DNA from: a virus
Taxonomy: Duplodnaviria; Heunggongvirae; Uroviricota; Caudoviricetes
Strand: one strand, 5' to 3'
Length of the DNA stretch: 64,000 nt
IMG/VR virus record: IMGVR_UViG_2881684137_000004
Span: 128,001 to 192,000 of that record
Each line of letters begins with the position of its first letter. The first letter of the stretch is position 1. The notes beneath the pieces were generated by a model. It worked only from the letters and a program-made list of their open reading frames with translations, searched no databases and was not told the origin of the DNA. Of the stretch, positions 1 through 21,299 are shown piece after piece. A program made the position numbers and the translations under genes.

Positions 1-323
1 TATGTAAATACGTTGTCCATTATATGTAGGCTTACCATTAAACTGATAAAGGATTTCACTAGTCATTTATATATACACCTCATGAATTATATATTTATAA
101 CACTTGATAACTGTATAATCATATATTTTATTTCAATAGGGTGAAAACAACCTTTCATATGTTTCAAACCTATTCTATTTTTATATTTAGTTTTTCATTC
201 AATTTTCCTAATAGCACATCCAACTTTACAATCTTATCTTTTAATTCTTCAGATTCTTTTCTCAACTCTCTCATGATCAACTTATTTTCACCTCTTTAAT
301 ATAATTTATGCTTTATATTTATA

Positions 324-352
324 AATATAAACTTATATAATTGTTTTGTCAA
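324..352 (-). promoter_or_regulatory. sigma-A-like promoter
   Basis: TTGACA-17bp-TATATT on minus strand. Confidence 0.6.
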
Positions 353-531
353 TATATTATTTTCATTCTATAAATCCTATTAGAATTAATCAACAATACA
401 GTAGATCGGCTCCACTGTTACTTCTATCCATCTGCTTATATAATAAAACCGAGAAAAGTAAGGGATGAAACAAAGACATTAATGCATTTGAAAAACTCTC
501 TACTTCGGAGGAGAAGATAGATCACAACACA

Positions 532-843
532 TTAATACTCTTCATACCCATCGTCCACATCTATACCAAATACTTCATCGTAGGGAACATTAATTATTAT
601 ATATCCATCGTGAATCAAGTATTTATTTGCTAACACATATTTAACTGGTACAGCAGCTTCAAACTCTGATAAGTCAGATTGAGAATGTTGTTCTGCCAGC
701 GATTTAGGGACTGCCATAATAGAATGCCCACAATCGCTTAAATAAGCGTAGAATGACTTTAACTCATCTGGTAGACCAGGATACTGTTTTGTTAGATTGA
801 TCATATGCTTAATTGACTGTAAGCTTTTTCTCATGTCAAGCAA
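532..843 (-). CDS. hypothetical protein
   Basis: 103 aa ORF, AGGAGG RBS before TTG start. Confidence 0.75.
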   Translation of the reverse strand: MLDMRKSLQSIKHMINLTKQYPGLPDELKSFYAYLSDCGHSIMAVPKSLAEQHSQSDLSEFEAAVPVKYVLANKYLIHDGYIIINVPYDEVFGIDVDDGYEEY

Positions 844-1017
844 AGCCTCCTAGTGTTTTTCTACATATCATTACACTATAGCAGATTATAATTTCATATA
901 CAATGTCACAATTTTTTTTATGTTACTCTATTATCCTCTAATTTCAATAACCTTCTTGCTTCCACTTTAATATGTTATTTACTCGTCTGATTGCTCAATT
1001 ATCTGTTTTATCTATGT

Positions 1018-1443
1018 TTAATCATGATATGCGCTAGCAATAACTTTAGCATCTCTACCAAATGCCCACTTGATCACATCGGCTCCAAGATATCCTCCCA
1101 AGTTACCATAAATGTCGTTATTGTCCCTTAAACGAATCATTGTTTGTAACTGAGCATCTGTTATATCTCTAGTCAATGCGTGTTCTTCAGACCCGTGAAA
1201 AAAATGCCAATAAGGATTTGTATTTAGCATAAACTCAACGTACCAAACGACTAAATCACCATTCGTACGAAGTAACAAACAAACATTAAGCGGACAATCA
1301 TGAGCAACAGATCTGATAATTGCCATGTCTTCGCATGAACCTTCACGCTCAACATCATACCTCTGCCCTAGCTCTACAACATGTTCCTTGATTTCGCTAA
1401 CACCTAAAATACCAGTTCTAGTATAAGTTATTAAATTCCCCAT
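1018..1443 (-). CDS. hypothetical protein
   Basis: 141 aa ORF, AAGGAG RBS. Confidence 0.75.
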   Translation of the reverse strand: MGNLITYTRTGILGVSEIKEHVVELGQRYDVEREGSCEDMAIIRSVAHDCPLNVCLLLRTNGDLVVWYVEFMLNTNPYWHFFHGSEEHALTRDITDAQLQTMIRLRDNNDIYGNLGGYLGADVIKWAFGRDAKVIASAYHD

Positions 1444-1577
1444 AATTCAATCATCTCCTTTTATGTAATTCAATTTTTTTCTTGTCAGTTTCATTAATAG
1501 GAAATGCCGTTTTTATGGTAGTTTCACGAGGCTGCTGTTAATCATCCTCTACGCTGTCATTAATAATCACAGCTGAT

Positions 1578-1820
1578 TTAAAATAATTCAAGTTCATCCT
1601 TAACATATTCGTGTGACCAAAAAAGATCATTTATAATACTTTCCAATTTCTTTTTGTTTGTTGCTCTCAGGTCAATGAAAACAATAAAGAACGGCGAATC
1701 GGTAAATTGTTCAAACAAAGCATACCTAATATTGTGCGATTTCAAAAATTCATTTATTTCAGAATGTGTATTGGATTCTTTGTTAATCATAACTTTCATT
1801 ACAGTTTTCAAAAAAATCAA
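1578..1820 (-). CDS. hypothetical protein
   Basis: 80 aa ORF, GGAGG upstream, bounded by 18-bp sites. Confidence 0.6.
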   Translation of the reverse strand: MIFLKTVMKVMINKESNTHSEINEFLKSHNIRYALFEQFTDSPFFIVFIDLRATNKKKLESIINDLFWSHEYVKDELELF

Positions 1821-1864
1821 CCTCCGATTTTATTTGTCTTGAAACAAGTGTTTCAAGACAAATA

Positions 1865-2224
1865 TTACATATGTGACAATAGTTTTCTAACTTGTTCATT
1901 GTCGAGATTATCGTATACACGAACAACAACTTTAGAATCTGGATGCATGAAATTTTTGAATTTCAAAACTCCATCAATGAAAGAAACGTTACCCAGAACA
2001 ACAAGGGTTTCAATTTCATTTCTATATATGAGTTCGCCAGTTACATTAATTGAAACCTCTAAAGTAGGAGGCTGAAAATCGTCAACAATACTCTTAGAAT
2101 CAATATATCCTACAAAAACGTTAAGCTTCCTCGCAAATTGTTCAATATCTAAACTGAAAGCAAACGATTCACCGTATCTAGTATTCTCATACTGAAATAC
2201 ATTTTCGAAAATTTCCTTTATCAT
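1865..2224 (-). CDS. hypothetical protein
   Basis: 119 aa ORF, AAGGAG RBS, bounded by 18-bp sites. Confidence 0.75.
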   Translation of the reverse strand: MIKEIFENVFQYENTRYGESFAFSLDIEQFARKLNVFVGYIDSKSIVDDFQPPTLEVSINVTGELIYRNEIETLVVLGNVSFIDGVLKFKNFMHPDSKVVVRVYDNLDNEQVRKLLSHM

Positions 2225-2299
2225 AATATTTAATTACTCCTTTTTGTATGGGAATGAAAGACTGGTTTCATATATTAATTTTTACTATATGTTCAACTT

Positions 2300-2506
2300 T
2301 TATATAAATGTGTCGCTGATGTTCATATCCAAATAATCAAACCCACTAGTAATATGTTCAAAATGCACCACAGCTATATCTTTAGTTTGATTTGGAAACA
2401 ATACAAATTCTCCGATATCCCCAACTTTAAGCTCAGGATGATGAGAATTATTCTTTACAGAAAGTACCTTAACTTCATCTCCTTCTTTCAATAAGCTCAT
2501 AATCAA
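2300..2506 (-). CDS. hypothetical protein (SH3/KOW-like)
   Basis: 68 aa, LKEGDEVKV...LKVGDIG beta-barrel pattern. Confidence 0.55.
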   Translation of the reverse strand: MIMSLLKEGDEVKVLSVKNNSHHPELKVGDIGEFVLFPNQTKDIAVVHFEHITSGFDYLDMNISDTFI

Positions 2507-2527
2507 CGCACCATTTCTATTGAATAT

Positions 2528-2698
2528 TTATCCGTTCCCCTCATCTGACTTTTTCCCATCGACAGAAAACATTTTCATTACATTCTTTTGTGCTTCCTTT
2601 TTAACTTCGCGGATCTTTCTGCTTGTAGGATCATTTCCAGTTTCAATAATTTTTTTCATTTCCTCTACACCTTTACGACTAATCTTTGGCTTATCCAT
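2528..2698 (-). CDS. small hypothetical protein (below ORF-track cutoff)
   Basis: 56 aa MDKPKISRKG..., GGGGAG RBS next to 18-bp site. Confidence 0.55.
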   Translation of the reverse strand: MDKPKISRKGVEEMKKIIETGNDPTSRKIREVKKEAQKNVMKMFSVDGKKSDEGNG

Positions 2699-2733
2699 AT
2701 AGTATCATCTCCCCATGAAAGACCGGCTTCATA

Positions 2734-3171
2734 TTAATCACTAATAACAAAACCTTTATGTCCACAATCTTTACATTCAACATTAATATTAATAGAACCA
2801 TCTTGATACCCATCAAGATATTTATTCAATTCAGCAGTAACCTCAGAATTTGAACTTTTACAAATCGGGCAAACTACTAGAAATTTTGCTTGTTCAACCT
2901 GTTTTTTCTTTTCTTCGTTCCATTTCAAATGATCACTCATACTCGTGTCCCCCTCTCCATGTTTCATCACTTTAAGTTTTAACTCGTTTAAATCAATATC
3001 ACAAACATTTGCAACTCTGATTAAACTCTCACCTGATATCCGATTAAGATTTAACCAACCAGTAAACGTCTTCTCATTTTCACCCAACTGCGCTGCTACC
3101 CAGGTCAAAGATAAGCCTTTATCTTCCTTAATAATTCTCTTTAATTCTTTTCCAAAATTCATATACCACAC
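2734..3171 (-). CDS. XRE-type HTH protein with C-terminal Zn ribbon
   Basis: GLSLTWVAAQLG..TFTGWL HTH; CPIC..CKDC. Confidence 0.7.
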   Translation of the reverse strand: MWYMNFGKELKRIIKEDKGLSLTWVAAQLGENEKTFTGWLNLNRISGESLIRVANVCDIDLNELKLKVMKHGEGDTSMSDHLKWNEEKKKQVEQAKFLVVCPICKSSNSEVTAELNKYLDGYQDGSININVECKDCGHKGFVISD

Positions 3172-3184
3172 CTCTCTTCGATAA

Positions 3185-3424
3185 TTACACTAACTCTAAT
3201 TCAGGATCATACTTTTTCAAGTATTCGTTGGCTTCAACCACACTTGCCTTTTTAGTTGAATTCTTTTCGCACCACATTACAGTATCCCAATCAATTTCCT
3301 CAGTTTCCTCAGTTTCGTTTGCTACTCTGAATTTCAATTCATTGAGTTCGCTAACGTAAACTCCCACAACCTCCGATCCGGTGTCAGGACAAGAAAAAGT
3401 TTTTGTGCTGTAGATATCCTTCAT
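3185..3424 (-). CDS. hypothetical protein
   Basis: Start re-set to MKDIY after AAGGA RBS; TTTACA-17-TATAAT promoter lies in the ORF-track 5' extension. Confidence 0.65.
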   Translation of the reverse strand: MKDIYSTKTFSCPDTGSEVVGVYVSELNELKFRVANETEETEEIDWDTVMWCEKNSTKKASVVEANEYLKKYDPELELV

Positions 3425-3547
3425 AATATAATCATTCCTTTTCTCTTTGATATGTATAATTATAACACGATAACACTTCAATGTAAAGAATTTTTTCTTC
3501 ATTATGAAGAAAAAAACGCTTTCGCGTCCTATAGAATCTCAATTTCA

Positions 3548-4156
3548 TCATCCATCTGTTGTGTTTTTCAACAAAGCAGCCAAAACATTCGGTAGTGCCT
3601 CGAATTTCTTTTGATTTATTGTTCTCAACTGCTCGCTTGCTCTTTTCACCTTCTCCCAATCTTTCTTTGTGATTGCAATATCTAATGATGTAAGTGTTAT
3701 ACGGTTACTTTTCTCCCAATCCTTATACCATTCATTTACTATATTGTGAAGTGAGTTTTTATTTTTAATATGCCTTATTTTCTGACCAATAGATTTCCCA
3801 GACCCTTTACTACTTTTTGAAGTTTGGAGTTGGATATTCGAAATTGATGTTGAGATAGGGATTGAAGGTGGATCAGTAATGCTTTGAATTTGTTCTGAAT
3901 CAGCTTTTTGGGACTTGCTTTCCAAATATCTTTTACGGAAATATTCTTGACATGTGCTACAGTACGTCTTTCCCTCCCTATCATTTTCATTCTTACATTT
4001 CCTGCATTTACCTTGACTTGAAAGTAGTGCAGATTCATTGCGTTTGTTAATTCGAAATCTGCATCTATCAGAGCAGTAATCTCTTTCAGGAGAATCATCA
4101 AAAACCACAAAGGTCTCTTCGCAATCATTCGCTTTACATTTGATTCGTTCAATCAT
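3548..4156 (-). CDS. Cys-rich Zn-finger protein
   Basis: C-x4-C..YCSDRC and CRKC..YCSTC motifs; bounded by 18-bp sites. Confidence 0.7.
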   Translation of the reverse strand: MIERIKCKANDCEETFVVFDDSPERDYCSDRCRFRINKRNESALLSSQGKCRKCKNENDREGKTYCSTCQEYFRKRYLESKSQKADSEQIQSITDPPSIPISTSISNIQLQTSKSSKGSGKSIGQKIRHIKNKNSLHNIVNEWYKDWEKSNRITLTSLDIAITKKDWEKVKRASEQLRTINQKKFEALPNVLAALLKNTTDG

Positions 4157-4255
4157 ATTTTATCAGTCCTGTTCCCGTGAATGATTCGTTTCATCCTTAG
4201 TTTATAAAATAATATCAATCTTTTCACCCAATTACTTTCTAACAACTACATATAT

Positions 4256-4819
4256 TTACATCAATTTATACCTACCATCCAGTATATCCTCTAACTGATT
4301 ATTTAAGCTTGCAATCTGATCACGTATGTCCTGTTCAATTTCGCACAGCCTATTAGCATCCTGTACGAAAATTTGCTCATTTCCTGCTCTGATTCTAACA
4401 TACTTAGCTTCATTCCACGACAAATATTCAATAAAGTCTTCGGCTTTATCTGAATCAATGATCCTTACATCTTTCCCCAATAAGAGCTGTCTTTTGTACA
4501 ACTCAAATTGCTCACTGTCGGGGAAAGTAATATTAAGTTCTTTTCGAGTTCTCAAGTGTATTTTACCTGGCTTTAGTAAGTTATCCGATAAAGATGTGCT
4601 CAATTTAACTCGAATTGTTTTTATTATTGCATCAAACAACTCCTTTGAAATCTCAATGCATTCTCCTTTTTCAGTGAATCCTGAGTAGCATTTTAAAGTC
4701 AATGAATAACCATCAGTATCAACTGTACAGAGATATCTTTTTTTATCATAATTAAATCTTTCAGTTGCTAATCTCCTCATATTTAATGTTCCTTCCCATG
4801 TGTAAGTAAAAGTTCTCAT
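4256..4819 (-). CDS. hypothetical protein
   Basis: 187 aa ORF co-oriented with neighbours. Confidence 0.7.
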   Translation of the reverse strand: MRTFTYTWEGTLNMRRLATERFNYDKKRYLCTVDTDGYSLTLKCYSGFTEKGECIEISKELFDAIIKTIRVKLSTSLSDNLLKPGKIHLRTRKELNITFPDSEQFELYKRQLLLGKDVRIIDSDKAEDFIEYLSWNEAKYVRIRAGNEQIFVQDANRLCEIEQDIRDQIASLNNQLEDILDGRYKLM

Positions 4820-4938
4820 TCTTCTTTTGTATAAGCAACAAAGAGAGGATTTTGCGTTTCCACATCAGATGTTTCTTTAATTTTGAACCCTTTATATGTA
4901 AATACTTTCATTTTCGCGATTGAAAACCGATTTGTTAT

Positions 4939-4967
4939 ACAAGCCTCCAGTTCGGCTGAAGGCTTGC
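4939..4967 (-). terminator. intrinsic terminator-like hairpin
   Basis: CAAGCCTCCAG-TTCGG-CTGAAGGCTTG just after stop at 4977. Confidence 0.5.
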
Positions 4968-4976
4968 TGTTATATA

Positions 4977-5327
4977 CTAATCCATTATTAATTTCCTGGT
5001 GAAACTATTCAATTTAAATGCCTGATTTTCTCCATTAATTTCGGGCTCATTATTTACAATATGAAGTTCGTGACAAGGATTATGATCGTCAACCGATATT
5101 GTGATTGTAAATCGCCCTCCAAAACTAGAACCTGAACGAAAGTTTATAACATTTTCTCTGGTTATTTTAAAACCATTAATGATAATCTCATCGCCTTCTG
5201 TCTCTGTTTTTAATAGCTGTAAATCCTTCACAAAGCTTTTATCTGAGCTATAGAAGTTAATCCCCTCTAATTGGACTTTAGTTCCTTCGTTTTCTTTTAA
5301 AAACCGTACTATTTCACTTGTATTCAT
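4977..5327 (-). CDS. hypothetical protein
   Basis: 116 aa, AAGGAG RBS. Confidence 0.7.
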   Translation of the reverse strand: MNTSEIVRFLKENEGTKVQLEGINFYSSDKSFVKDLQLLKTETEGDEIIINGFKITRENVINFRSGSSFGGRFTITISVDDHNPCHELHIVNNEPEINGENQAFKLNSFTRKLIMD

Positions 5328-5379
5328 AAAAAATCATCTCCTTATTATATGGCTATGAAATAAGCATTTCGTGTTACAG

Positions 5380-5727
5380 TTAAGAATTTTCAATTAATAT
5401 TTCTGTAGGAATTAAATGCAAAGACCCCGAAGTTGTTTCACCAAGAGAAAATCCGTTCTCATATTCATAGATAATATTAAATATGGTATATTTTTTTACC
5501 ATATCATAGTCTTGAGAAATAACCTTCTTTTTATTAATAACGTTTGCCTCTTCTGTATATCTACCTAACTTAAGCATATTACTACTATATTCATCAAATT
5601 CATTAAGTAACTCATCCACTACTTCAGAATCAATGTTCATTTTATCAACAAGTTTGTCATAAAGATTCGCAACCATAAGCTGATAGTCATCAATTATTTT
5701 AAATAAATTTGGCTCCAAATGAATCAT
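5380..5727 (-). CDS. hypothetical protein
   Basis: 115 aa, single ORF between two 18-bp sites. Confidence 0.7.
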   Translation of the reverse strand: MIHLEPNLFKIIDDYQLMVANLYDKLVDKMNIDSEVVDELLNEFDEYSSNMLKLGRYTEEANVINKKKVISQDYDMVKKYTIFNIIYEYENGFSLGETTSGSLHLIPTEILIENS

Positions 5728-5769
5728 CTCCTAAAAATAAAGTTTCATTTAAGAAATTGTCTTAGCTTA

Positions 5770-5985
5770 TTATCCTTCAGATAAATTCTTATTTCTTGCA
5801 AACACATTGTCATACTGGATCTTGTCCACTACTATTACTTTATCGCTATGTACGCCGCTCTTGATGATCTCTCTGACTTCATCTTCGGTGATCACCTCTT
5901 CATTGTACAACGCCAATTTAGGTGCTGTAAATGAGCCATGTGGAGCTTCAAATTCGATGATCATAATTTTATCTTTAGTGATCAT
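5770..5985 (-). CDS. hypothetical protein
   Basis: 71 aa, GAGGTG RBS, single ORF between two 18-bp sites. Confidence 0.7.
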   Translation of the reverse strand: MITKDKIMIIEFEAPHGSFTAPKLALYNEEVITEDEVREIIKSGVHSDKVIVVDKIQYDNVFARNKNLSEG

Positions 5986-6023
5986 GTTTTCACCTCAATT
6001 GTATTTCACACAAAACTCAGATT

Positions 6024-6665
6024 TCATTCCCTAAAAAGATCCTCAATGGTTTCCCATCTTTCATTTTCTTCTTCTGCCTGCTGAAGTGCTGCTGGCAGGG
6101 GGACAAGATAAATTGGATTGGAGTTGACTGTTTCGTTCGGGGCAAGAATGAACATGTACCCGTATTTATGGCCAACTAGGTGACTTACAGCGTCAAGCTC
6201 AGATTCTGCGTCTTCACTACTTAGATGAGATGATAATATTTTTTGCCCATTTGCCACAATGATATAGTATGGACTGTGATTACATAGTTCAATTTTAGCT
6301 GAAACCTCTTTATTCATGACTTTCCCTCTTTCGAAAAAAGTTATCTCTTCAATTTCCACATACTCTTCATCATCATCTACTTCATTTTCTGTTAAACTGA
6401 AAATGTAACCATTTTCTAAATATGAACTTATCTTACCGTCGTCATCTACATATTTTATAAAATGTGAAAAAACAATTTGCACTTCATCTTCATGGCCTTT
6501 TCTTTCTATTTCTAACGATGTTATAAACACATCGTTACCTATCGTATGAATAGCATTACCATCTTGCGGCGTGGATATATCTGTAACACGATTGTTTGCA
6601 AATGTAACTGTGCCTTGTATTTGAGGGTACATATCTGATACTGTTTTAATTTCATATTTTTTCAT
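6024..6665 (-). CDS. hypothetical acidic protein
   Basis: 213 aa, GAGGAG RBS, own TTGATA-17-TATAAT promoter; TGA stop lies inside an 18-bp site. Confidence 0.75.
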   Translation of the reverse strand: MKKYEIKTVSDMYPQIQGTVTFANNRVTDISTPQDGNAIHTIGNDVFITSLEIERKGHEDEVQIVFSHFIKYVDDDGKISSYLENGYIFSLTENEVDDDEEYVEIEEITFFERGKVMNKEVSAKIELCNHSPYYIIVANGQKILSSHLSSEDAESELDAVSHLVGHKYGYMFILAPNETVNSNPIYLVPLPAALQQAEEENERWETIEDLFRE

Positions 6666-6780
6666 TTAAAATCTCTCCTCTCTTATTCTCTTGGAATTAA
6701 TTACATTATATCACATTAGATGCTTCATATCAAATATTTTATTCTTCAAAATGAAGTTTTTTTGCTATTGGGTAAATAAT

Positions 6781-9700
6781 TCAACTAATCTCTTGCTTCC
6801 CCCATTTGATTCTAACATTACCTTCAATGTCTCTTTCTTTTGACATCAACATGTCTAGTAAGTTAAAATCCACGCCAAACTTATCATACAATTCTTCATC
6901 GTCAATTTCTTGATTCTTCATAAATAAATTCAACTTCTCTTTTGTCAATATTAATCCGAGTAGGTTGCTTTCGATACTATTCTCATAAGTAAAAAAGTGA
7001 ACCTCCTTTTTGTCAATTGAATTGTAACGTATGAATCTAAAGTAGTACTGACTCATTGTGGCTTCATTCCAGGATAATTCAGGGATAATCACTTTATTGA
7101 CAAATCCTATATTCATGCTGCTACTCAAACTCTGTTGAGTCGAAATTAGTATTCCATTTTTCGACTCTTGAAGCTGCTGGATTATCTGTTTTCGTTTATT
7201 TAGGCTAACTTTATCCCCAGTGATTACGAAAACAGGTCGGCTAGGAAATCTGTATTTTATCGCCTTAACATATGCATTGACAGTTTTTATATGCCGAACT
7301 CCAATGGCAACATACTCATCTTCCCACTTATCAATTTTGTTTAAAACGTCAACAAATTTATTTGGTAATTGTTTACTTTGATACTCCCCGAACACTTGAG
7401 GAGCTGCACAAACTTTTAACATGAGCATTAACTGATTAAGGATCTCAAGCATTCTATCTTTACGAATATTGCCTGTTGACTTAAACAAGTGCTTCATCGT
7501 ATAAAATTCTTCAATTATTCTTTTATACAATTCTTTTTCCGCTGAGTTGAAGCGACTTTTTTGCTGAATAATATCATAAATCTTTTCTCCTCTCACTTCT
7601 TCGAAGGATCTTGTTATTATTGTTTTATTGATTAAATCTTTTAAGACATCAGCGTTATATACATCTTGTGTATGTTGTCCAATACCAAAAACGGTTATTT
7701 TCTCAGGAATGTGAGATTCTGAAAAAAGTCTATATCCCTTATTATAGGCTGGAATAGGCTTTAAATAGTTTTCGTTTCTTACTTCATTTAACTTCTCTTT
7801 ATCATCCTTGTCTCTTTTGAAAATATACTCACAGTTACTTATCATATTGACACTATTATTATAAAGTAATTCGAACTGTGTCGCCGCTTCAGCAATTGTA
7901 TTTCTCGTCATGGTGCCAGTCATAAGCGTTTTATACTTTACCTTTCTGAATACGCTCAAAATGGCTCTGGTGCGTTTAGAAACTGAACTGGACATGTTGT
8001 CAGCTTCATCAAAAATCAAAGCAACTTTTTGTGATTGCATTTTAACGAATTTTTTTATGAACCTTTGATACTTTGTTAATTGGTTGAGTGTTACAATGAC
8101 GATTTGGCCAGGTTGGATGTTGTAAATATCTTTTAAGGTGTTGATCCTTATGAAGTCGAATCCATAACTTTTCAAAATGACTGCCCACGTATTATTAATT
8201 GCAATTGCAGTTGAGACTATAAAGACGTTTCTAGCTTTATTGACCTGCAACCTGTAAACTAGATTTGCAACACCTGACACACTTTTTCCAGAACCCTGCC
8301 CCCATTGTAAAAATCCATATTGCTTTTGGAGAATTTTGTTTGTATCTTCTTTTTGAATCAAATTCAATTTAATACTCTCATTACTATTGCTATCATAGAT
8401 AATGAGGTCATCCAAGAAATTACTGATCTTTCTATTCAAATTCATTTCAGAGTAGTATAGAGCTTGTGCTTTATACTTGGTAATCTTCTTATTTAATAAT
8501 TTTTTATATTTTTTATCCTCAAAAGGATAGTTATTATTTAAGACCATATTAAAGAAAGTATCTTCTTTTTTACCTGTCTTTGATAATGACAATTTCATTT
8601 TATGTGAATAAGCTTTCAATTTTATTCCGTACCTTGTTTTTACTAATTTAATTTCATCTCTTTCTATGTAATGCTGGTTTTTCAAGACTTTCTTCAAATA
8701 TGACAACACCTTATTTTTGGTAATTCTTATTTTCATCCACTCTTCGTATTTCATCGAATTTGGTTTGACTTGGTTGTAATATCTATTAACATATTCGCGA
8801 CATTTAGCATACTTCATGTTTATCTTCGAATTTCTTTTGATGTCAAATAAATACTTTTTAACCTTAAACTCAAATTCATCGTCTGGTTCACTTTGTAGAT
8901 TTTCTAAATATAGTTTACTCCGTATTTTTTCCTTCTCTTCGTAAAGTTGTTCTATGTATTTTTTAAAAATAATGCTCCCGTTCGATTCTTTAGGTTCTGT
9001 TATAGTTAATTCCTGTCCGTTTGAATATATTGTCTCCGGTATATAATCACTCTTTTTTTGGAATAGCATGATTTTAGTTTCAAACCTTTCGACCCCTACC
9101 GACTTAAAAGCATCATCGGGTAATCCAATATGATGAATAAAGTTGAACATTGCATTCATTTTTTTAATCATCCCTGAGTCTGTGAAATCATCAGACAAAA
9201 AAGATTTGGGTACAATGAGCGCTAATATCCCTCCAGGCTGCAAAAGCTCATGTGCTTTCCAGCAATAATAAAATTGACTTAAATATTCTTCTTTATCCAC
9301 TGTCCATTTTAAGTTAAATGGAGGATTCCCTAAAATTAAATCAAATTTAACTCCTGGTTCATAGCTCCTGATGTCTTCACAGCTTGAATTAACTTCCGGA
9401 TATAAAAATCGCATGACCTTGAATGCTTTTATATCAATTTCATTTCCGTAAACATTAGAAAGGTTGGGCAACCAATTAAAGAAGTTACCCATACCAGCGG
9501 TTAAATCTGCTATCAAATCATGCTCAGAAGGTTTTAAACAGTCAATAATGAACCTACATAGATTATGAATAGTGAAAAATTGACCGTTTTCTATTTCTTT
9601 TTTCGCTTCTGTGTAATCGTGAAAGTTATCAAAATCATTAAATGATAACCCATGTAAACCACCGTCTCCAGTGTAAGAATTATAAATGTCTTCCGCTTCA

Positions 9701-9807
9701 ACATTGTACTTTTCAGTTAGTTTATTATCAATCAAGTACAGTATTTTTTCGTTTATTACTTTTCTCTTGTCTTGAGGGATTTCAGTAGGTTGTATTGTAT
9801 ACTTCAT
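6781..9807 (-). CDS. N6-adenine DNA methyltransferase fused to SF2 (SNF2/DEAD-like) helicase, DarB-like architecture
   Basis: GQFFT, DLTAGMGNF (SAM motif I), GNPPF (motif IV); GQGSGKS Walker A, DEAD, TGT motif III. Confidence 0.85.
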   Translation of the reverse strand: MKYTIQPTEIPQDKRKVINEKILYLIDNKLTEKYNVEAEDIYNSYTGDGGLHGLSFNDFDNFHDYTEAKKEIENGQFFTIHNLCRFIIDCLKPSEHDLIADLTAGMGNFFNWLPNLSNVYGNEIDIKAFKVMRFLYPEVNSSCEDIRSYEPGVKFDLILGNPPFNLKWTVDKEEYLSQFYYCWKAHELLQPGGILALIVPKSFLSDDFTDSGMIKKMNAMFNFIHHIGLPDDAFKSVGVERFETKIMLFQKKSDYIPETIYSNGQELTITEPKESNGSIIFKKYIEQLYEEKEKIRSKLYLENLQSEPDDEFEFKVKKYLFDIKRNSKINMKYAKCREYVNRYYNQVKPNSMKYEEWMKIRITKNKVLSYLKKVLKNQHYIERDEIKLVKTRYGIKLKAYSHKMKLSLSKTGKKEDTFFNMVLNNNYPFEDKKYKKLLNKKITKYKAQALYYSEMNLNRKISNFLDDLIIYDSNSNESIKLNLIQKEDTNKILQKQYGFLQWGQGSGKSVSGVANLVYRLQVNKARNVFIVSTAIAINNTWAVILKSYGFDFIRINTLKDIYNIQPGQIVIVTLNQLTKYQRFIKKFVKMQSQKVALIFDEADNMSSSVSKRTRAILSVFRKVKYKTLMTGTMTRNTIAEAATQFELLYNNSVNMISNCEYIFKRDKDDKEKLNEVRNENYLKPIPAYNKGYRLFSESHIPEKITVFGIGQHTQDVYNADVLKDLINKTIITRSFEEVRGEKIYDIIQQKSRFNSAEKELYKRIIEEFYTMKHLFKSTGNIRKDRMLEILNQLMLMLKVCAAPQVFGEYQSKQLPNKFVDVLNKIDKWEDEYVAIGVRHIKTVNAYVKAIKYRFPSRPVFVITGDKVSLNKRKQIIQQLQESKNGILISTQQSLSSSMNIGFVNKVIIPELSWNEATMSQYYFRFIRYNSIDKKEVHFFTYENSIESNLLGLILTKEKLNLFMKNQEIDDEELYDKFGVDFNLLDMLMSKERDIEGNVRIKWGKQEIS

Positions 9808-10646: not shown

Positions 10647-10837
10647 GTTATTTCCTCATTCCTATATTTTTTTAAAAAAATCCCGTTCGAAAATTTAGCT
10701 GCTGTTATAGTCAGAAATGAAAACCCTTATGTTTATTGTGTTTTTTATTCCTTTATACTACGATGAAACTGTTATTTTATACTATAGTAAGCACTCCAGT
10801 AAAAAAAGAAAACTGAAGTGCTTATTGATAATAAAAC

Positions 10838-12463: not shown

Positions 12464-12500
12464 AAATATCAACTATACTCTGTACGCTGTACGCTGTACG

Positions 12501-13790: not shown

Positions 13791-13917
13791 TTATAAAAAC
13801 CTCCATTTGTTTGCATCTCTTAATAATAAATATACAGGTTTATAACTATAAAGTCAACTAATTTTTTTATATTTTATTAAATAGAACGAAACAGCTATTT
13901 CATGCTAACTATTCAGA

Positions 13918-14196: not shown

Positions 14197-14275
14197 TCGA
14201 ATAACCCTCCTGTTAACGTCTTAATGACATTGTATCACAGAGGGTTATTAATTGTATATATTTTTCTTTTATAAT

Positions 14276-14566: not shown

Positions 14567-14580
14567 TGGGGATTACCCTC

Positions 14581-14919: not shown

Positions 14920-14960
14920 TTTATTAGGCCTCCTGTGTACTATATTGGATTGATTCACCT

Positions 14961-15215
14961 TTAGGAGAAGCAAGGATAGTCAGTTTCACGTTTTTTCCTT
15001 TTGAATTTTTCTATACTGATTTGCATTTGTTCAGTATTTGCATAAAATGGCTTGCCAACTTTTGAAGCATAATTAAAATGAGGAAACACCATTGCTTTAT
15101 TTTCATTGAAGCGAATATATGCAATCAATTCTTTGTTAATTCTTAATTCGTTGAGTTCAAACATATTCATTGGAGTAACTTCAACATCTGGAATTGCATT
15201 TAAATGATTTTTCAT
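14961..15215 (-). CDS. hypothetical protein
   Basis: 84 aa, AAGGAG RBS. Confidence 0.65.
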   Translation of the reverse strand: MKNHLNAIPDVEVTPMNMFELNELRINKELIAYIRFNENKAMVFPHFNYASKVGKPFYANTEQMQISIEKFKRKKRETDYPCFS

Positions 15216-15274
15216 TTTATTAATTCTCCTTGTCTATGTATTAGTATGAAAGTCGCATTTCATGTCCTATTTAT

Positions 15275-15562
15275 TTATGTATATTTTGGAGATACAAACC
15301 TTTGTTCCTTCTTTTCTTCTATCATGTTTTTAAGCCATCCCTGATTTGCTTTAATCAATTGTTCTGCTCGTTCAATTGCATCTTTCTCATATCTATAATT
15401 TTGAGTTACTGCCATTCCCGTAATGGCTTCCGTTACATTCCAATGTTTATCATGTGCTAAGGATTCGTGAACAAAACATTCAAAACCACTTATTAAAACT
15501 TTTGTGCCTTCTACTTCTATGAATTTATTACCCTTTACTTGAATGTAATAAATATCTTTCAT
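15275..15562 (-). CDS. hypothetical protein
   Basis: MKDIY start with GGAG RBS; single ORF between two near-identical 30-bp boundary repeats. Confidence 0.7.
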   Translation of the reverse strand: MKDIYYIQVKGNKFIEVEGTKVLISGFECFVHESLAHDKHWNVTEAITGMAVTQNYRYEKDAIERAEQLIKANQGWLKNMIEEKKEQRFVSPKYT

Positions 15563-15603
15563 TTTTAACCACTCCATTTATGTATTAGTAGGAAAGCCGT
15601 ATT

Positions 15604-15999
15604 TCATGCTAATGCTTCAATTTTTTTAAACTGATATTCGTTCACCGCTTTTGGGGATTTACGAATGTAATCAAAAACTTTCAAAACATCTTGAATAGTA
15701 ATTCTTTCCATTTCAATGTTTGTCATAATTTGATTATAATCATGATTCAAAACATCCCACACGATCAAAAATTGATCGAAATTAAAGGGGTTGTTCTCCT
15801 GTAGACTGTTCAATAAATCGTCTCTTTGTTCTCTTGCTTCGCGTTCGTCTTTTTCTCTCTTTGCTTTTTCGATACTTTCCACTTTTAAAGCATGATCAAA
15901 TTTTTCATCAGATAATTTTAGGTTGTTGGCATTGATACGCTTGTTATATGCGCTCCAATCCTTGGCGGTGCTATTAAATTTCGGTTTTGTTAAAATCAT
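15604..15999 (-). CDS. hypothetical protein
   Basis: 131 aa, AGGAG RBS, TGA stop inside an 18-bp site. Confidence 0.7.
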   Translation of the reverse strand: MILTKPKFNSTAKDWSAYNKRINANNLKLSDEKFDHALKVESIEKAKREKDEREAREQRDDLLNSLQENNPFNFDQFLIVWDVLNHDYNQIMTNIEMERITIQDVLKVFDYIRKSPKAVNEYQFKKIEALA

Positions 16000-16121
16000 T
16001 TATATTCACGCTCCTATGTATCTATTTTATATTACTTTAAGCAGTCAACCGCTGCACTGATGGAATCGTCTATTTCATTGTCGAACCAGTAGAATAATGA
16101 TACCCAAAGTATGCATTCATC

Positions 16122-16373
16122 CTAACCATTGCAACAAGCTTTAGCCATATCAGACAAATAATTTTTGTCCCAGGCTAGAATCTCATATGCGCTTATATCA
16201 AGTGTAACTGATACAGTATAAACCTCCTCAAAATGCTGATTTCTGAAGCGTGGATCAAACTTAGCAGAATCCTTAGCAGCAAGGTAATCGCAATAATTCT
16301 CCCAAACACGATAACTATTCACTTCACCTTGAGACATAGTGGCCAAATCTTTCTCTTTCAACATTCTAATCAC
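16122..16373 (-). CDS. hypothetical protein
   Basis: 83 aa, operator-promoter upstream. Confidence 0.65.
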   Translation of the reverse strand: MIRMLKEKDLATMSQGEVNSYRVWENYCDYLAAKDSAKFDPRFRNQHFEEVYTVSVTLDISAYEILAWDKNYLSDMAKACCNG

Positions 16374-16512
16374 TCCCTGATATGTATTTATTACCTTAAT
16401 TATAATTGAAAAGTTTATGTTTGTAAAGTTATTTTTGTATATTTATTATTTGATAATTACGGTGAACATAATTTGATAAATACTTAAATTAATATCACTG
16501 GCAATGCAATAG

Positions 16513-16788
16513 CTATATTTGAGTTTTACCCATTTTTGAAAAGTCACTTATTAGCGCATCCACGCCTTCTATCTCAATCACTATGTCAATTGCTTCTTCA
16601 ACGCTTTCGACTTTTGTTCCATTCACAGAGATCTTATCTTTGTATAAATCAATCGTACAGTTCTCGGTCAATATGGCTGCCGTTGGTGCATATGCAAATG
16701 TGTATTTGTCTCCAAATACTTCATATTTGTATCCATATATCTCAAGTTTGCGGCTAATGGCTTTGATGTTCTTTTCTAGTTTGGTCAT
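16513..16788 (-). CDS. hypothetical protein
   Basis: 91 aa, AGGAGG RBS. Confidence 0.7.
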   Translation of the reverse strand: MTKLEKNIKAISRKLEIYGYKYEVFGDKYTFAYAPTAAILTENCTIDLYKDKISVNGTKVESVEEAIDIVIEIEGVDALISDFSKMGKTQI

Positions 16789-16835
16789 GACATTTCCCTC
16801 CTATTTAACTTTGATTCATATTTATAGTTTTATAA

Positions 16836-16982
16836 CTACCATCCTCGACCATTTTTCACTGCTTCTAAATTTTCTTTTGCGTAGATAATGTAATCTTCTT
16901 TTCTGTGATCGTTTTTGTAAGCGTCAATGACTTTCTCCAATTGCTTTTCATAATACTCAATTAACTGCTCTTTCAATTTCAT
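16836..16982 (-). CDS. small hypothetical protein (below ORF-track cutoff)
   Basis: 48 aa MKLKEQLIEYY..., AGGAGG RBS next to 18-bp site. Confidence 0.6.
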   Translation of the reverse strand: MKLKEQLIEYYEKQLEKVIDAYKNDHRKEDYIIYAKENLEAVKNGRGW

Positions 16983-17021
16983 TATTTATTACCTCCTATA
17001 GAATCACTCTTTTATATTCTA

Positions 17022-17249
17022 CTATGCAAGATATGTATTTTTATCATCTTTATAGATTGTTTTTAATTCTAAAGGCATATAAAAATAATTCTTCTCTCCA
17101 TGGATTACGATGAAGTAACCCTCATTATCATGCTGCACTTTTCTGTGTGCAGTGGTATTGATTTTTGCTCTATTGACAATCTTAACGACAGCATACAGTT
17201 TTTCTGACTTACTAATAAACAAATCTACATAAATCCAGTTTTTCATCAT
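17022..17249 (-). CDS. hypothetical protein
   Basis: 75 aa, GGAGG RBS, overlaps upstream stop. Confidence 0.65.
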   Translation of the reverse strand: MMKNWIYVDLFISKSEKLYAVVKIVNRAKINTTAHRKVQHDNEGYFIVIHGEKNYFYMPLELKTIYKDDKNTYLA

Positions 17250-17473
17250 TCATGCCTCCCATTGCTATGCCATTTTAAATTATTTATGGGCAATTCAAAT
17301 CTTTCATTGTTCCTTAATTCCAGTAGTGCCGTTTCATATCCCCAAGCTTGTTGTATCTTTTCTTCATCAGCAGCATTCCAGTATTGACCGTACATTCCCA
17401 CCAGAAAAACTGAACCGTGTTTATCTTTTGTGAAAACTACATTTAATGAGCGCAATCCTTTTCTATTCCCCAA
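17246..17473 (-). CDS. hypothetical protein
   Basis: 75 aa, GAGGTG RBS. Confidence 0.65.
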   Translation of the reverse strand: MGNRKGLRSLNVVFTKDKHGSVFLVGMYGQYWNAADEEKIQQAWGYETALLELRNNERFELPINNLKWHSNGRHE

Positions 17474-17716
17474 AATCTCACCTCATGTCACTTTTTCTAA
17501 AAGTAAGTGTTTCATTTCTTTCAATGCCTTATTGACTGCTATAATTGAATTTTTAGATTTAATAATGCAAATAAATAATGCCTCATTTATATCCGGTTTT
17601 TAACTTCATTGTGATCCATTTTTATTCCTTCTGATATTTTTATAGCCACCTCAACGCCTTCACAAGACGTTGAACGCTCTAAGCTTAAGGCTGCTTCTGA
17701 CTATAATAGTCACCGC

Positions 17717-17974
17717 TTAGACGGTTTGTTTAAGTAATTGATAATTGTAATGAATTAATTCATTTAAATCGATACCAGATGATTCAATAGCACTTTTGAT
17801 GCTTTCTTTGAAATTATTTAAAGATTCAATCTTACAAATCTTTTCAATTTCAGTTAAAGAATCATCATCTCTTATTATTTCAATTGCATAACTCAAATCA
17901 GTCATTGATCTAAATAATTCAATTGCATTCCCCTTTAGGGTAGCATTCAATTCATTTTCAAATACATTTTTCAT
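17717..17974 (-). CDS. hypothetical protein
   Basis: 85 aa, AGGAGG RBS. Confidence 0.7.
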   Translation of the reverse strand: MKNVFENELNATLKGNAIELFRSMTDLSYAIEIIRDDDSLTEIEKICKIESLNNFKESIKSAIESSGIDLNELIHYNYQLLKQTV

Positions 17975-18068
17975 GGTAATACCTCCTAGTTATGTGTATG
18001 GTTTTATAATATCACAATGTACATGAAATGAGTATTTAATCGGATAGATAGTGAAGTATATCCCTTTT

Positions 18069-18260
18069 TTAATATTTGCCATTCGGATTAATAAAGTCAC
18101 ATTGAACATCATTTTCTTTCATGTAGCGGTAGTAATTAACAAGCATTACCATGTCACCTTCAGGAATGGCCGTTGTTTCGTCAGTGATTACATTAACTTT
18201 TTGGGTTGTTTCATCATGAACGAATTCCATTGTTCTATTATTGTTGATTTCAATTTTCAT
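18069..18260 (-). CDS. hypothetical protein
   Basis: MKIEINN start, AGGAG RBS. Confidence 0.6.
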   Translation of the reverse strand: MKIEINNNRTMEFVHDETTQKVNVITDETTAIPEGDMVMLVNYYRYMKENDVQCDFINPNGKY

Positions 18261-18320
18261 TTTACACACTCCTATGTATGATTGGAGAAGGGGAATTTCT
18301 TCCCCTTTATTACAAGGCTT

Positions 18321-18509
18321 CTACATGAACAACCGTTTATAATATTCAATTTTATCTTTTGTTGCCTCCAGTGCGTCTGTCGCATTGCAGAAAGGCCTAA
18401 CACTTTCAAGCTTTGCAAGCTTCGGCATGATATATTCCCAGCTTTTCTTTTTTGCTTCCAATTCTTTAATTTTGCCGCGGATCTGCATATTGTGCAATTC
18501 AACATTCAT
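18321..18509 (-). CDS. hypothetical protein
   Basis: 62 aa, GAAGG RBS, operator-promoter upstream. Confidence 0.6.
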   Translation of the reverse strand: MNVELHNMQIRGKIKELEAKKKSWEYIMPKLAKLESVRPFCNATDALEATKDKIEYYKRLFM

Positions 18510-18650
18510 CTAAAAACCTTCTTCCATTATGTATTTGTTACTTTTATTATAATCGTTTACTTTATATTTGTAAAGTTTTATGTATATTTTATTTATTTTT
18601 AATTACAATGAAAACCGAATTCTATCGTAAGAGAAAGGGGAATTACTCCC

Positions 18651-19058
18651 CTATAAACTTAACAGTTCTTTTACTTCTTCATGAGCTGCCAACACAACAT
18701 TATGAAATTGTTGGTCATCCATTTCAATTAAATCTTTGTTGCTGTATCCTTCAATTAAAGTTCTAATATCTTCACAATCGTACACATTCACCGCACTGAT
18801 TTTAGAAATGCTTTTAATCCTTTTCATAACAGTGTGATTAATTTTATAACTTTCATCCATAATTCTATTTTCTTTCTCAATCAACCATTTCGGTGGTTCG
18901 TATTCGCGGTAAGGCTTGCTTAATTTGTGATGATCGTTCACCCACTGCTGTCCATTGCATTCATAACACTTGCCGCCGTCTATCATTATGTAGTTTTGGA
19001 TAATTCCCTTACCTAGACATTTAGGACACTTTTTCATGGTTTGGATTCCTCTTTTCAT
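18651..19058 (-). CDS. Zn-finger (CxxCxGxG) protein
   Basis: CPKCLGKG and CYECNG motifs; start probably 19037. Confidence 0.7.
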   Translation of the reverse strand: MKRGIQTMKKCPKCLGKGIIQNYIMIDGGKCYECNGQQWVNDHHKLSKPYREYEPPKWLIEKENRIMDESYKINHTVMKRIKSISKISAVNVYDCEDIRTLIEGYSNKDLIEMDDQQFHNVVLAAHEEVKELLSL

Positions 19059-19093
19059 TTTTGTTGGAAGAAGTAAAAGGGGATTTCTGCCCT

Positions 19094-19342
19094 TTAAGCT
19101 GGAATACTTTTCATTAGTGAATTGAAGTCATATGGCATTGCCATTCTTTTGTTCAGATCCTTTATATAGCTATCATAAAATTCAGGAAAATCAGGAAAAT
19201 CAGTTTCTAACTTTTTAAGCAATTCACATCTTTTCTCAATAAGTCCTTGCCTGTTTTTAATGTTGAGGTTGCTCCGACTACGTATTACACATTCTGTTTC
19301 AGCGAGGTCTTGACAAAGTCTTTTGTAGTTCATTTTTATCAA
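19094..19342 (-). CDS. hypothetical protein
   Basis: 82 aa, operator-promoter upstream. Confidence 0.65.
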   Translation of the reverse strand: MIKMNYKRLCQDLAETECVIRSRSNLNIKNRQGLIEKRCELLKKLETDFPDFPEFYDSYIKDLNKRMAMPYDFNSLMKSIPA

Positions 19343-19464
19343 CCACCTAATATGTATTTGTTACTTTGTTACTTTTATTATAAATCAAAAGTTTATAAAC
19401 GTAAAGTATTTTTGTATATTTTTTTACGATGAATCCTTATTCTAATGAAGGGGAATTTCTCCCC

Positions 19465-20148
19465 TTATGCAGTACAATCTGCCAATAAATCTAATTCTAC
19501 AGACTTATGAATCACGATTTCATATTCTTCTGCATCTGCAATCATTTCATTCATTCTAGATTCATTTACTACATCCCATACCTTCCGGCCTTCATAACTA
19601 GTCCAGCATATTAAAAACCTGTCAATCCTAGACAATGCGCTTTCTTTTCTTCTTGTGTTGTTCTTTATATATTTGATTAAATGTTTGTTTCCGATTTTCA
19701 AAAAATCGATTAACCTTTCATCATTGTGAAAGTTTTCATATAATTTTTCTTTGTTAAATGCACCGCCCCCATAAAGACTTCTAATTCTTTCAATTGACTT
19801 TTCAGAGCCATTTCCGATAACCATATATGTTAATTCATATTCCCACGTTTCAACTTCGTTAAATTTCTTGTGGATCGCCGCAAACTGATTGCCAGTTAAC
19901 TTGTGACAATCATCCCATTGTGCGACAATGGAATCTTGAAACCTCTTATTCCAGTCATCTTTAAAAGTTTTAGTTTTAAATACCTCTATTAAAGCGATAC
20001 ATTTATGACTCCAATCCGCATTAGCAATGTTTTGCAGATGAACATATTTAAGTGCTAAGGCTTGGCGATAACAGTTATACCCATAAGATTTGCCGTCTAA
20101 ATGATGAACGTTTTGAATCGATTTTCCGCAAGTGTAACAGTTCGTCAT
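19465..20148 (-). CDS. hypothetical protein with N-terminal Zn finger
   Basis: CYTCGK..YGYNC; GGAGG RBS. Confidence 0.75.
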   Translation of the reverse strand: MTNCYTCGKSIQNVHHLDGKSYGYNCYRQALALKYVHLQNIANADWSHKCIALIEVFKTKTFKDDWNKRFQDSIVAQWDDCHKLTGNQFAAIHKKFNEVETWEYELTYMVIGNGSEKSIERIRSLYGGGAFNKEKLYENFHNDERLIDFLKIGNKHLIKYIKNNTRRKESALSRIDRFLICWTSYEGRKVWDVVNESRMNEMIADAEEYEIVIHKSVELDLLADCTA

Positions 20149-20171
20149 TGAATTAAACCTCCATAATCATC

Positions 20172-20561
20172 TTAAATAAGAAGCTTAAAAGCAGCATTTA
20201 CAGCGTTTCGTTTTTCTCCATAGCTTGCCGATGGGCATTTAGCCAATCTCAAGAGTTTCATTACTGTTTCTGAAACTACTGGAATTGAAATTATATATTG
20301 TATCTTTTTTTCAATTAATATTGATTCCCAAGCAAGCGAAGCATTTTCAAGCCAGTATTCATCATATGCTGGCGAAACTGTAGTAAAGTTAATACCAGCT
20401 TTCTTTAGATAAATTATTTGAGAAGTGGAAATATTGTGCCGATCTAATAGAACAATTGAAGAAGAAGGAATAATAACATTTTTAATTGCATCGATTTTAA
20501 ATACAACTGCACCCGATAGCTGGTTTATGTTTTCAGAAATTATAATAATTTTCTTCTTCAT
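20172..20561 (-). CDS. hypothetical protein
   Basis: 129 aa, GGAGG RBS, operator-promoter upstream. Confidence 0.7.
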   Translation of the reverse strand: MKKKIIIISENINQLSGAVVFKIDAIKNVIIPSSSIVLLDRHNISTSQIIYLKKAGINFTTVSPAYDEYWLENASLAWESILIEKKIQYIISIPVVSETVMKLLRLAKCPSASYGEKRNAVNAAFKLLI

Positions 20562-20900
20562 ATTTGGGTGACCTCCATATAAATAAAATATAAATCTGAT
20601 ATGTTTATATTATAACAATCCGGTTTATACTTGTAAAGTAAATATGTATATTTTATTTTTATTTGCTTCAGTATTCAACAGTCCATCACTGCAACCAGGA
20701 AACGCCGCTAGGAGACGCTATAGGCCTCCTACTACTTCTGTCGGCTAATGCCTTATGACTTACTTTGTTACATACAAAGTGTTATCCAAGCGCCTTAGAC
20801 TAGAGAGAGAGCACCTATATAAGGATGATAGTTCCCACATTACTAAATTTCCTAAGAATGTATCCCTCCTAGTTCTCTATACTGTTGTTTAAAAGGGGAA

Positions 20901-21050
20901 TTACTCCCCATAAATTCTAATATGTTCATGATATTCGTCAATAATCTGTTCTTTTTCTTCGATGGCTTTAGAATGATATTCTTCCTCATGCATTCTATAA
21001 TCTTCCTCAAGCCACTTGATAAAGTGCGCAAGATTTACGTTAAGTTTCAT
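20901..21050 (-). CDS. small hypothetical protein (below ORF-track cutoff)
   Basis: 49 aa MKLNVNLAHF..., GGAGG RBS, TAA stop in loop of GGGGA hairpin. Confidence 0.6.
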   Translation of the reverse strand: MKLNVNLAHFIKWLEEDYRMHEEEYHSKAIEEKEQIIDEYHEHIRIYGE

Positions 21051-21089
21051 TTATTTTACCTCCATTTAGTATAGGATGAAAGACAGATT

Positions 21090-21299
21090 TTATCCATATT
21101 TTTTAATAAAAGATAAGCAATTTTTACACAAAGAATTCAGTTCTATATCAGACAAATGCTCAAAATGTTCGGGTTCTTCTGAAATAATGTCTAACTCGTG
21201 TTGTACTAGGAACACCAAGTCTTTAACTGATTGGTGAATATGTGGATCATATGTTATACCGTCTGGAAGATTCTTCAAAGCTCTACTAAACATAATCAT
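21090..21299 (-). CDS. hypothetical protein
   Basis: 69 aa, TAA stop inside an 18-bp site. Confidence 0.6.
   Translation of the reverse strand: MIMFSRALKNLPDGITYDPHIHQSVKDLVFLVQHELDIISEEPEHFEHLSDIELNSLCKNCLSFIKKYG

Follow-up and report, generated by a model that had tools for sequence, protein, structure and literature searches.

What is the short inverted repeat that recurs between the small genes of a very large tailed phage, and what takes place at it? The stretch that raises the question is 64,000 nucleotides of a Caudoviricetes virus (IMG/VR record IMGVR_UViG_2881684137_000004, positions 128,001 to 192,000), hereafter called the window. A sequence-only reading had taken some 20 copies of ATGAAA-N6-TTTCAT, lying between 141 and 21093, for an integron-like array of gene cassettes. 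Our comparisons support a different account, in which the sites appear to be gene-module boundaries where related phages have exchanged genes, because homology between close relatives breaks at site edges, because the sites are absent from conserved gene adjacencies, and because distant relatives share exact site centres between unrelated genes. To the more specific proposal that the sites are individually addressed crossover joints for gene exchange between phages, possibly worked by a Xer-like tyrosine recombinase, we give an even chance of being right.

The sites lie in a giant SPbeta-like prophage

The window corresponds to G000:C22:312198-376197 and falls within a 219-kb island (C22: ~185.0-404.0 kb) of 33% guanine-plus-cytosine (GC) content with sharp borders, in a surrounding genome of 7.7 Mb and 48% GC. 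From 185 to 346 kb, or below ~34000 in the window, genes are encoded on the - strand; beyond that point, as far as 402 kb, they are on the + strand. The protein encoded at 34284-36887 shares ~50% identity with SPbeta YonO and 53% with a Clostridium botulinum phage protein; as a YonO-type RNA polymerase, it identifies the island as a very large SPbeta-like prophage. Related islands (G291, G278 and G051) were found in other genera of the same family, with synteny kept and proteins 25-75% identical. No close relative of the window's phage was found in the phage collection, in 300 same-family and 400 same-order genomes, in viral contigs or in genome contigs. Gene calls were taken from a simple caller of open reading frames (ORFs).

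A dyad-symmetric motif with a fixed spacing and private centres

The site is real and its six-base spacing exact, as first described, although its true consensus is ATRAAA-N6-TTTYAT, an 18-bp dyad-symmetric element. Of the strict form, ATGAAA-N6-TTTCAT, the window has 4 copies where 0.07 would be expected, and 8 of 10 perfect copies genome-wide are inside the island. With up to two mismatches to the strict form, the window holds 36 copies (19.5 expected), 23 of them within 141-21093; all genes in that interval are on the - strand, and its gene boundaries do hold the number of sites originally counted, with 17 at ≤1 mismatch and ~20 at ≤2. Allowing R and Y in the arms and keeping the other 10 arm positions exact, we counted 50 sense-strand copies in the early regions of the three islands taken together, where ~1.4 are expected. 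Copies at N6 number 17, 22 and 11 in the three islands, versus 0-4 at any other spacing; the late arms of three islands have 5, 6 and 2 copies, and in the 7.2-Mb host the motif count is at background. An unbiased census of all perfect inverted repeats with 6-mer arms and spacers of 0-12 ranked ATGAAA with spacer 6 first in all three islands and ATAAAA with spacer 6 second in two of the three.

The array had been thought to be limited to 141-21093 and to leave the late genes free. Instead, it spans the entire 219-kb prophage, and the late (+) arm has one intergenic copy at 40691-40708 as well as exact copies within coding sequence at 49613 and 53810. An exact motif also lies in the reading frame of a holin gene (C22:401631; gene 401375-401767), at the same codon (D-K-x-x-I-S-L-E) as the copy at G278:C3:412805; the two holins are 29% identical, and constraint on either the DNA or the protein may keep the motif in place.

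Within the arms, variation is confined to one pair of positions, R at 3 and Y at 16. Its combinations among the 50 copies (A..C 20, G..C 14, A..T 9, G..T 7) are the exact product of the single frequencies, and the sites of Psychrobacillus phage Perkons show the same independent variation. This absence of pairing covariation, together with that of a stable fold, points to a double-stranded DNA element recognised by a two-fold symmetric protein, which would read the two half-sites as sequence on duplex DNA. Conservation is limited to 6-7 bp per arm. The centre is richer in GC than the background, as had been noticed (45% versus 33%), and follows a symmetric edge rule, A being rare as its first base and T as its last. 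Compared within genomes, the centres of 153 sites include no identical pair.

Exact copies number 14 in SPbeta (1 for the reversed-pattern control), 16 in phi3T, 16 in Goe11, 38 in Perkons (control 2) and 13 in the G051 island, and the specificity for a spacing of 6 holds in SPbeta and Perkons too. Neither the SPbeta review nor the papers on MrpR, SroF and Perkons were found to describe the motif.

Sites occupy gene junctions and avoid conserved adjacencies

Along the gene strand, the order is upstream stop codon, site, ribosome-binding site and start codon (Table 1). In 60 of 84 cases the distance between upstream stop and site is -4 to +6 nt, and the TRA of the left arm itself provides the stop in 27%; the stops at 6024, 15604 and 21090 lie within sites, as had been pointed out. 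The start codon of the following gene stands a median of 21 nt past the site. Enrichment at gene boundaries over background, on which the original proposal hinged, was confirmed: 52% of the 24-60 nt gaps between co-directional genes in the three islands bear the motif at ≤2 mismatches, versus 5-7% of random segments. Stop-codon type showed no association with the motif. The six intervals between sites that had been singled out as enclosing one ORF each do so. Sites are dispersed over 219 kb, on both arms and among many sigmaA-like promoters, and some copies lie downstream of terminators or upstream of promoters.

Table 1. Junction sites and marker genes in the window.
Feature	Coordinates	Strand	Remarks
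Junction site	141..158		1 mismatch (GTGAAA..TTTCAT)
Junction site	1499..1516		- strand centre ACGGCA equals that of a collinear G291 site (1442756) between unrelated genes
Junction site	1839..1856		Variant TTGAAA..TTTCAA (outer base changed symmetrically)
Junction site	2254..2271		Exact
Junction site	2715..2732		1 mismatch; centre one base off that of 2254
Junction site	3531..3548		- strand centre TTGAGA equals that of a collinear G291 site (1444103) between unrelated genes
Junction site	4177..4194		2 mismatches
Junction site	5355..5372		1 mismatch
Junction site	5731..5748		1 mismatch to ATRAAA-N6-TTTYAT
Junction site	6010..6027		Contains stop of ORF 6024-6665(-)
Junction site	10763..10780		Exact to ATRAAA-N6-TTTYAT
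Junction site	13886..13903		Directly past upstream stop, 5' of sigmaA-like promoter
Junction site	15246..15263		Exact; brackets one ORF (15275-15577) together with 15590
Junction site	15590..15607		Contains stop of ORF 15604-15999(-)
Junction site	16998..17015		1 mismatch
Junction site	17229..17246		1 mismatch
Junction site	18023..18040		1 mismatch
Junction site	18608..18625		Between terminator-like hairpin and promoter
Junction site	21076..21093		Exact; contains stop of ORF 21090-21299(-)
Intergenic site, late arm (+)	40691..40708		Exact
Tyrosine recombinase-fold gene, SPbeta YopP/SroD homolog	32945..33991	-	24% identity, E 1e-25; R, K, HxxR, H, Y present
YonO-type single-chain RNA polymerase	34284..36887	+	Pfam RdRP match; SPbeta-like lineage marker
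Xer-like tyrosine recombinase, late operon, SPbeta YomM homolog	57053..58039	+	Full catalytic set

Across distant islands, orthologous genes have a site at both members in 8 cases and at one only in 29. Gene adjacencies conserved between islands carry the motif in 0 of 8 gaps (24-90 nt), compared with 84 of 246 other gaps (p 0.038); at core/accessory borders the motif is present in 27 of 90 gaps, and between accessory genes in 57 of 156. Neighbouring centres show a weak similarity (mean 1.94 versus 1.70 matches), in few pairs only, such as 15246/15590; a footprint of site duplication sought in this similarity was set aside as weak and confined to those few pairs. No repeated cassettes were found within the genome, sigmaA-like promoter regions of 60-87 nt being the only repeats within the island. 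In G278, two near-identical centre pairs, C3:303384/327784 and 304164/328391, stand 24.3 kb apart in the same order, a possible segmental duplication.

Homology between close relatives breaks at site edges

Because the collections searched hold no close relative of the window's phage, the breakpoint test was run on SPbeta, phi3T and Goe11. Breakpoints in these related phages do fall at sites, as the sequence-only reading had anticipated: the blastn homology blocks have 364 ends, of which 34 are no more than 5 nt from a site (3.7 expected at random, maximum 9) and 62 no more than 20 nt (7.5 expected). Among gaps of 18-60 nt, 41% of the motif-bearing and 11% of the motif-less contain a block end (p 6e-5), and among gaps of 61-150 nt the proportions are 61% and 32%. 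When non-coding DNA alone is considered, 20 of 137 unique block ends fall in the motif ±5 nt, a space that takes up 5% of the bases (2.9-fold, p 1.5e-5). At the level of single bases, identity begins or ends at the site edge in ~20 junctions, and the junction sites share centres.

Two cases illustrate the pattern. A 3.2-kb segment, SPbeta 83687-86899 and phi3T 76354-79566, is 99.97% identical in the two phages, with a site at each end and unrelated DNA beyond. At the Goe11 site 78832, the left flank is of SPbeta type and the right flank of phi3T type, and the centre is identical in all three phages. SPbeta 88399 and phi3T 80189 share the centre AGACTG, with flanks that are unrelated on one or both sides. 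Exchange between genomes at the same site is what these alignments display, and to that extent the original interpretation is supported; shuffling within a genome is unlikely, since no two centres in one genome are identical.

Distant phages share exact centres between unrelated genes

Over ten pairs of distant phages, 38 exact centres are held in common, against 15.7 expected (p 1.3e-6). The window's phage and G291 share 8 exact centres where 2.2 are expected, and 6 of the 8 are collinear (probability 0.022). At these sites, the flanking genes have no mutual BLASTP match on either side. The window contains two of the sites with G291-shared centres, at 1499-1516 and 3531-3548. Three phages have one centre in common, and in two instances a pair of neighbouring sites has its counterpart in another phage. 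For orthologous genes in distant islands, whether the centre upstream is conserved could be followed in 8 cases only, too few for a verdict. If the reading protein were blind to the centre, the survival of exact centres would have no explanation, whereas a crossover that needs matching centres would supply one.

A proposed model of addressed crossover joints

How might such joints operate? A two-fold symmetric phage protein would read ATRAAA-N6-TTTYAT as double-stranded DNA. The site occupies the sole free space of a tightly packed genome, from a stop codon to the next ribosome-binding site or promoter, its arms constant and its six-base centre private to each copy. Related SPbeta-like phages, during co-infection or when a phage meets a resident prophage, would swap the genes between two joints, and crossover would require an identical centre on both partners. 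If matching is required, only the same joint in two genomes could recombine, so that gene order would be kept and neither deletion nor inversion would arise within a genome. The most likely enzyme would be a phage tyrosine recombinase. This assignment, like the ideas that strands are exchanged inside the centre and that centres must match, is what we infer from the sequence comparisons.

More tentatively, and at less than even confidence, we envisage in SPbeta-like phages a built-in, ordered gene-exchange system of ~40-90 core sites per genome with common arms and private 6-bp addresses, in which a phage tyrosine recombinase would swap genes with relatives that share the addresses while the phage's own genome would never be scrambled. 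If true, this would be a natural form of recombinase-mediated cassette exchange and would supply a molecular basis for the 'linker' model of phage mosaicism. Mosaicism is an old open question, in which exchange at linker sequences is set against random illegitimate joins sorted by selection. Here, a defined short site matches module boundaries to the base, and its private centre appears to outlive the replacement of surrounding genes. As SPbeta and phi3T are genetically tractable in Bacillus subtilis, the linker idea becomes directly testable. Should an enzyme be involved, tool uses are obvious, and the conserved, unexplained recombinase-like genes yomM and yopP would acquire a function.

Candidate recombinases

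The lineage has three recombinase-fold proteins, of the MrpR, YopP/SroD and YomM types, of which MrpR is the known repressor. The two recombinases in the window keep R, K, HxxR, H and Y, in agreement with the earlier assignment of two tyrosine recombinases; the bounds of the first gene are 32945-33991. We take the YomM-type protein (57053-58039) as the first candidate because it is present in every motif-bearing phage checked (5 of 5: the window's phage, SPbeta, Perkons, G291 and G278), and the YopP/SroD-type protein (32945-33991) as the second. The G291 and G278 orthologs of the latter also keep R, K, HxxR, H and Y. Both window recombinases are Xer-like and are not members of the Xer family: the best Xer models, XerA and XerC, gave 94 and 88 bits against cut-offs of 220 and 335. 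NCBIfam integron-integrase models gave 44.7 and 18.8 bits for 57053-58039, against cut-offs of 265 and 435, and had no match to 32945-33991. A PDB sequence search with the YopP-like protein returned no match. Brady et al. 2023 are said to have described YopP/SroD as an auxiliary lysogeny repressor.

A homolog of MrpR/YopR lies outside the window at C22:277786-278757 and matches both Pfam MrpR domains. A YopQ-like gene with a weak DndB-like match adjoins it (G000:C22:277786-280124).

Several points weigh against crossover at addressed joints. The recombinases are candidates, and their action on the sites is conjectural. YomM of SPbeta, G291, G278 and Perkons has HxxK where the window copy (57053-58039) has HxxR; SPbeta YopP likewise has HxxK, the three giant prophages having HxxR, and no YopP homolog was found in Perkons. 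For a recombinase arm, 6-7 conserved bp is short, and 18-20 nt of identity could also be enough for short-homology recombination with no site-specific enzyme involved. For the window's phage, the breakpoint evidence has to be taken over from SPbeta-group phages, and the block ends, drawn from three related genomes, are not independent of one another. More junctions lie at left edges than at right edges, an imbalance not expected under a simple symmetric model. The collinearity test is small, with 8 points (P 0.022). Finally, ordinary homologous recombination accounts for the laboratory hybrids of phi3Ts and SPbeta; as their crossovers fall in long identical tracts, they are uninformative on the sites.

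Alternative explanations

The rival that fares best, which we consider unlikely while granting it real weight, makes the sites docking places only. A dimeric phage DNA-binding protein, for example YopQ/SroE or YopP/SroD, would silence the prophage or block read-through across it, much as at the stoperators of mycobacteriophage L5 or at dispersed KorB/ParB-type operators; breakpoints would collect at the site as the sole conserved sequence between unrelated genes, a passive short-homology linker. A palindrome of fixed spacing without pairing covariation is typical of a dimer on duplex DNA, and dozens of copies stand in short intergenic gaps on both arms. In SPbeta, the recombinase-fold protein MrpR/SroF acts purely as a repressor at repeated boxes (PMC10516654; bioRxiv 10.1101/2025.11.27.690993), yopP and yopQ belong to the core genes and are presumed active in lysogeny, and the HxxK found in place of HxxR in several YomM and YopP orthologs would also suit a docking role. 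However, a centre-blind protein leaves unexplained both the ordered exact centres between unrelated flanking genes and the absence of sites from conserved adjacencies. MrpR ChAP-seq gave only 10 peaks, all at the SPBRE boxes discussed below, and 18-20 nt of identity is poor for general recombination, yet ~20 clean junctions are seen.

It is improbable that the sites are nuclease or nicking hotspots, cut by a symmetric phage endonuclease and repaired against a related genome so that crossovers are placed there. Breakpoints at sites would also be compatible with this, and some restriction-type enzymes characteristically recognise symmetric sites of two parts around an N5-N6 centre. On the other hand, there is no candidate nuclease connected with the motif, repair of a break commonly produces conversion tracts that spread from the cut and not sharp site edges, and the conserved private centres go unexplained.

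We regard as very improbable an RNA element, that is, an mRNA hairpin between stop codon and Shine-Dalgarno sequence acting as a processing site, stabiliser or translation insulator. The position between the stop and ribosome-binding site of co-directional genes would favour it, but the hairpin was rejected for want of covariation and of a stable fold: on the sense strand A.C, which does not pair, outnumbers every other combination, perfect copies fold at -2.2 to -2.6 kcal/mol only, and A.C copies are unfolded. Copies after terminators or upstream of promoters and the failure of orthologous genes to keep the site also speak against it. Rfam gave no family at gathering score anywhere in window 1-64000, including 60489-61853 (a proposed group I intron) and 39910-40240 (a proposed large non-coding RNA).

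The strict integron reading, in which an IntI-like integrase captures and excises single-gene cassettes through folded attC-like sites, is hardly credible and the original analogy does not survive, for although sites stand at gene ends, sometimes around a single ORF, and tyrosine recombinases are encoded, the 18-bp site has sequence-conserved arms with no attC-like fold and no structural or pairing covariation, the integrase-model scores fall far short of their cut-offs and no IntI-type integrase was found, the sites are spread over 219 kb among many promoters with no single attI/Pc array, and all centres differ within a genome that has no repeated cassettes.

Three further identities were tried and rejected. 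A sigmaA or activator-dependent promoter fits poorly with a ribosome-binding site that often abuts the site and with a well-spaced -10-like hexamer in a minority of copies only. A YonO promoter was dismissed because YonO initiates one late operon from a single start site (PMC5467207). Nor is the motif SPBRE: that box, derived from the promoter regions of seven SPbeta genes or operons, differs from it in both sequence and position.

Relation to known site families

Close parallels to addressed joints come from the dif and pdif sites, which have palindromic inner arms and a variable 6-bp centre (PMC6449649). In the pdif/dif modules of Acinetobacter plasmids, sites are likewise dispersed, modules bounded by two sites appear in different contexts, and the enzymes, XerC/XerD there and a candidate here, are Xer-type tyrosine recombinases (PMC6449649). 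Recurrence of a two-site-bounded module is seen here in the segment SPbeta 83687-86899 / phi3T 76354-79566. The pdif site, however, is 28 bp long with 11 bp per arm, compared with 6-7 conserved bp and no XerC/XerD arm asymmetry here. Our candidate enzyme is phage-encoded and below all Xer family cut-offs, and the element is a phage one, with sites at almost every second junction and centres that apparently serve as position-specific addresses.

Heterospecific lox and FRT sites have identical arms and different centres, and only matching centres recombine, which permits a segment to be swapped without rearrangement. The same pattern was found here: within a genome the arms agree and the centres differ, and partner genomes have matching centres at corresponding joints. 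Cassette exchange with lox/FRT is engineered, whereas the centre-matching requirement proposed here is drawn from comparative data.

Integrons resemble the present case in two respects: small accessory genes have recombination sites (attC) at their ends, and there is a tyrosine recombinase, IntI there and a candidate here. In contrast to the 18-bp sites with arms conserved in sequence, attC sites are folded single-strand sites of 57-141 nt conserved in structure. An integron also has one attI, one promoter Pc and an IntI with a specific extra domain, none of which was found here.

Among phages, the closest precedent for gene shuffling at intergenic repeats is provided by the PeSL cassettes of the T4 type. 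A PeSL combines a strong sigma70-like promoter with a terminator hairpin, its cassettes recombine by homology and form mini-circles, and these repeated short elements flank small non-essential genes where related phages shuffle (PMC2839356). The site described here differs in being neither a promoter nor a stable hairpin and in having centres that differ; with a ribosome-binding site 0-15 nt downstream, there is no room for a transcription start of the PeSL kind.

The stoperators of cluster A mycobacteriophages, reportedly characterised by Brown et al. in 1997 (EMBO J) as asymmetric, orientation-dependent and bound by the immunity repressor, resemble our sites in being dozens of short sequences in intergenic gaps genome-wide that often touch stop or start codons. 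They differ in their asymmetry, the site here being dyad-symmetric, and are not known to act in crossover.

SPBRE boxes, bound by MrpR/SroF of SPbeta (PMC10516654), share with our sites the phage lineage, the repetition of a box and a reader of recombinase fold. They differ in sequence (AAATACAAAWAATATGTATA), in number (~10 copies), in their place downstream of promoters and in being bound by a monomer. The window has an SPBRE-like box of its own, AAATACATA(A/T)T, which resembles the left half of SPBRE and stands behind sigmaA-like promoters, the repeated promoter regions mentioned above; these boxes are on the - strand, upstream of the genes starting at 33922, 26413, 23551, 19333 and 16364.

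Other features of the prophage

The prophage interrupts a host pyrimidine-nucleoside phosphorylase gene, whose parts lie outside the window at G000:C22:184198-186897 and 402304-404258, with the N-terminal domain of the split phosphorylase at the right end of the prophage. A complete replacement phosphorylase gene is situated just inside the prophage. Within the window, 6781-9807 on the - strand encodes a 1008-residue fusion of an N6-adenine DNA methylase with a DEAD/Helicase_C helicase, which is 55% identical to a G278 protein.

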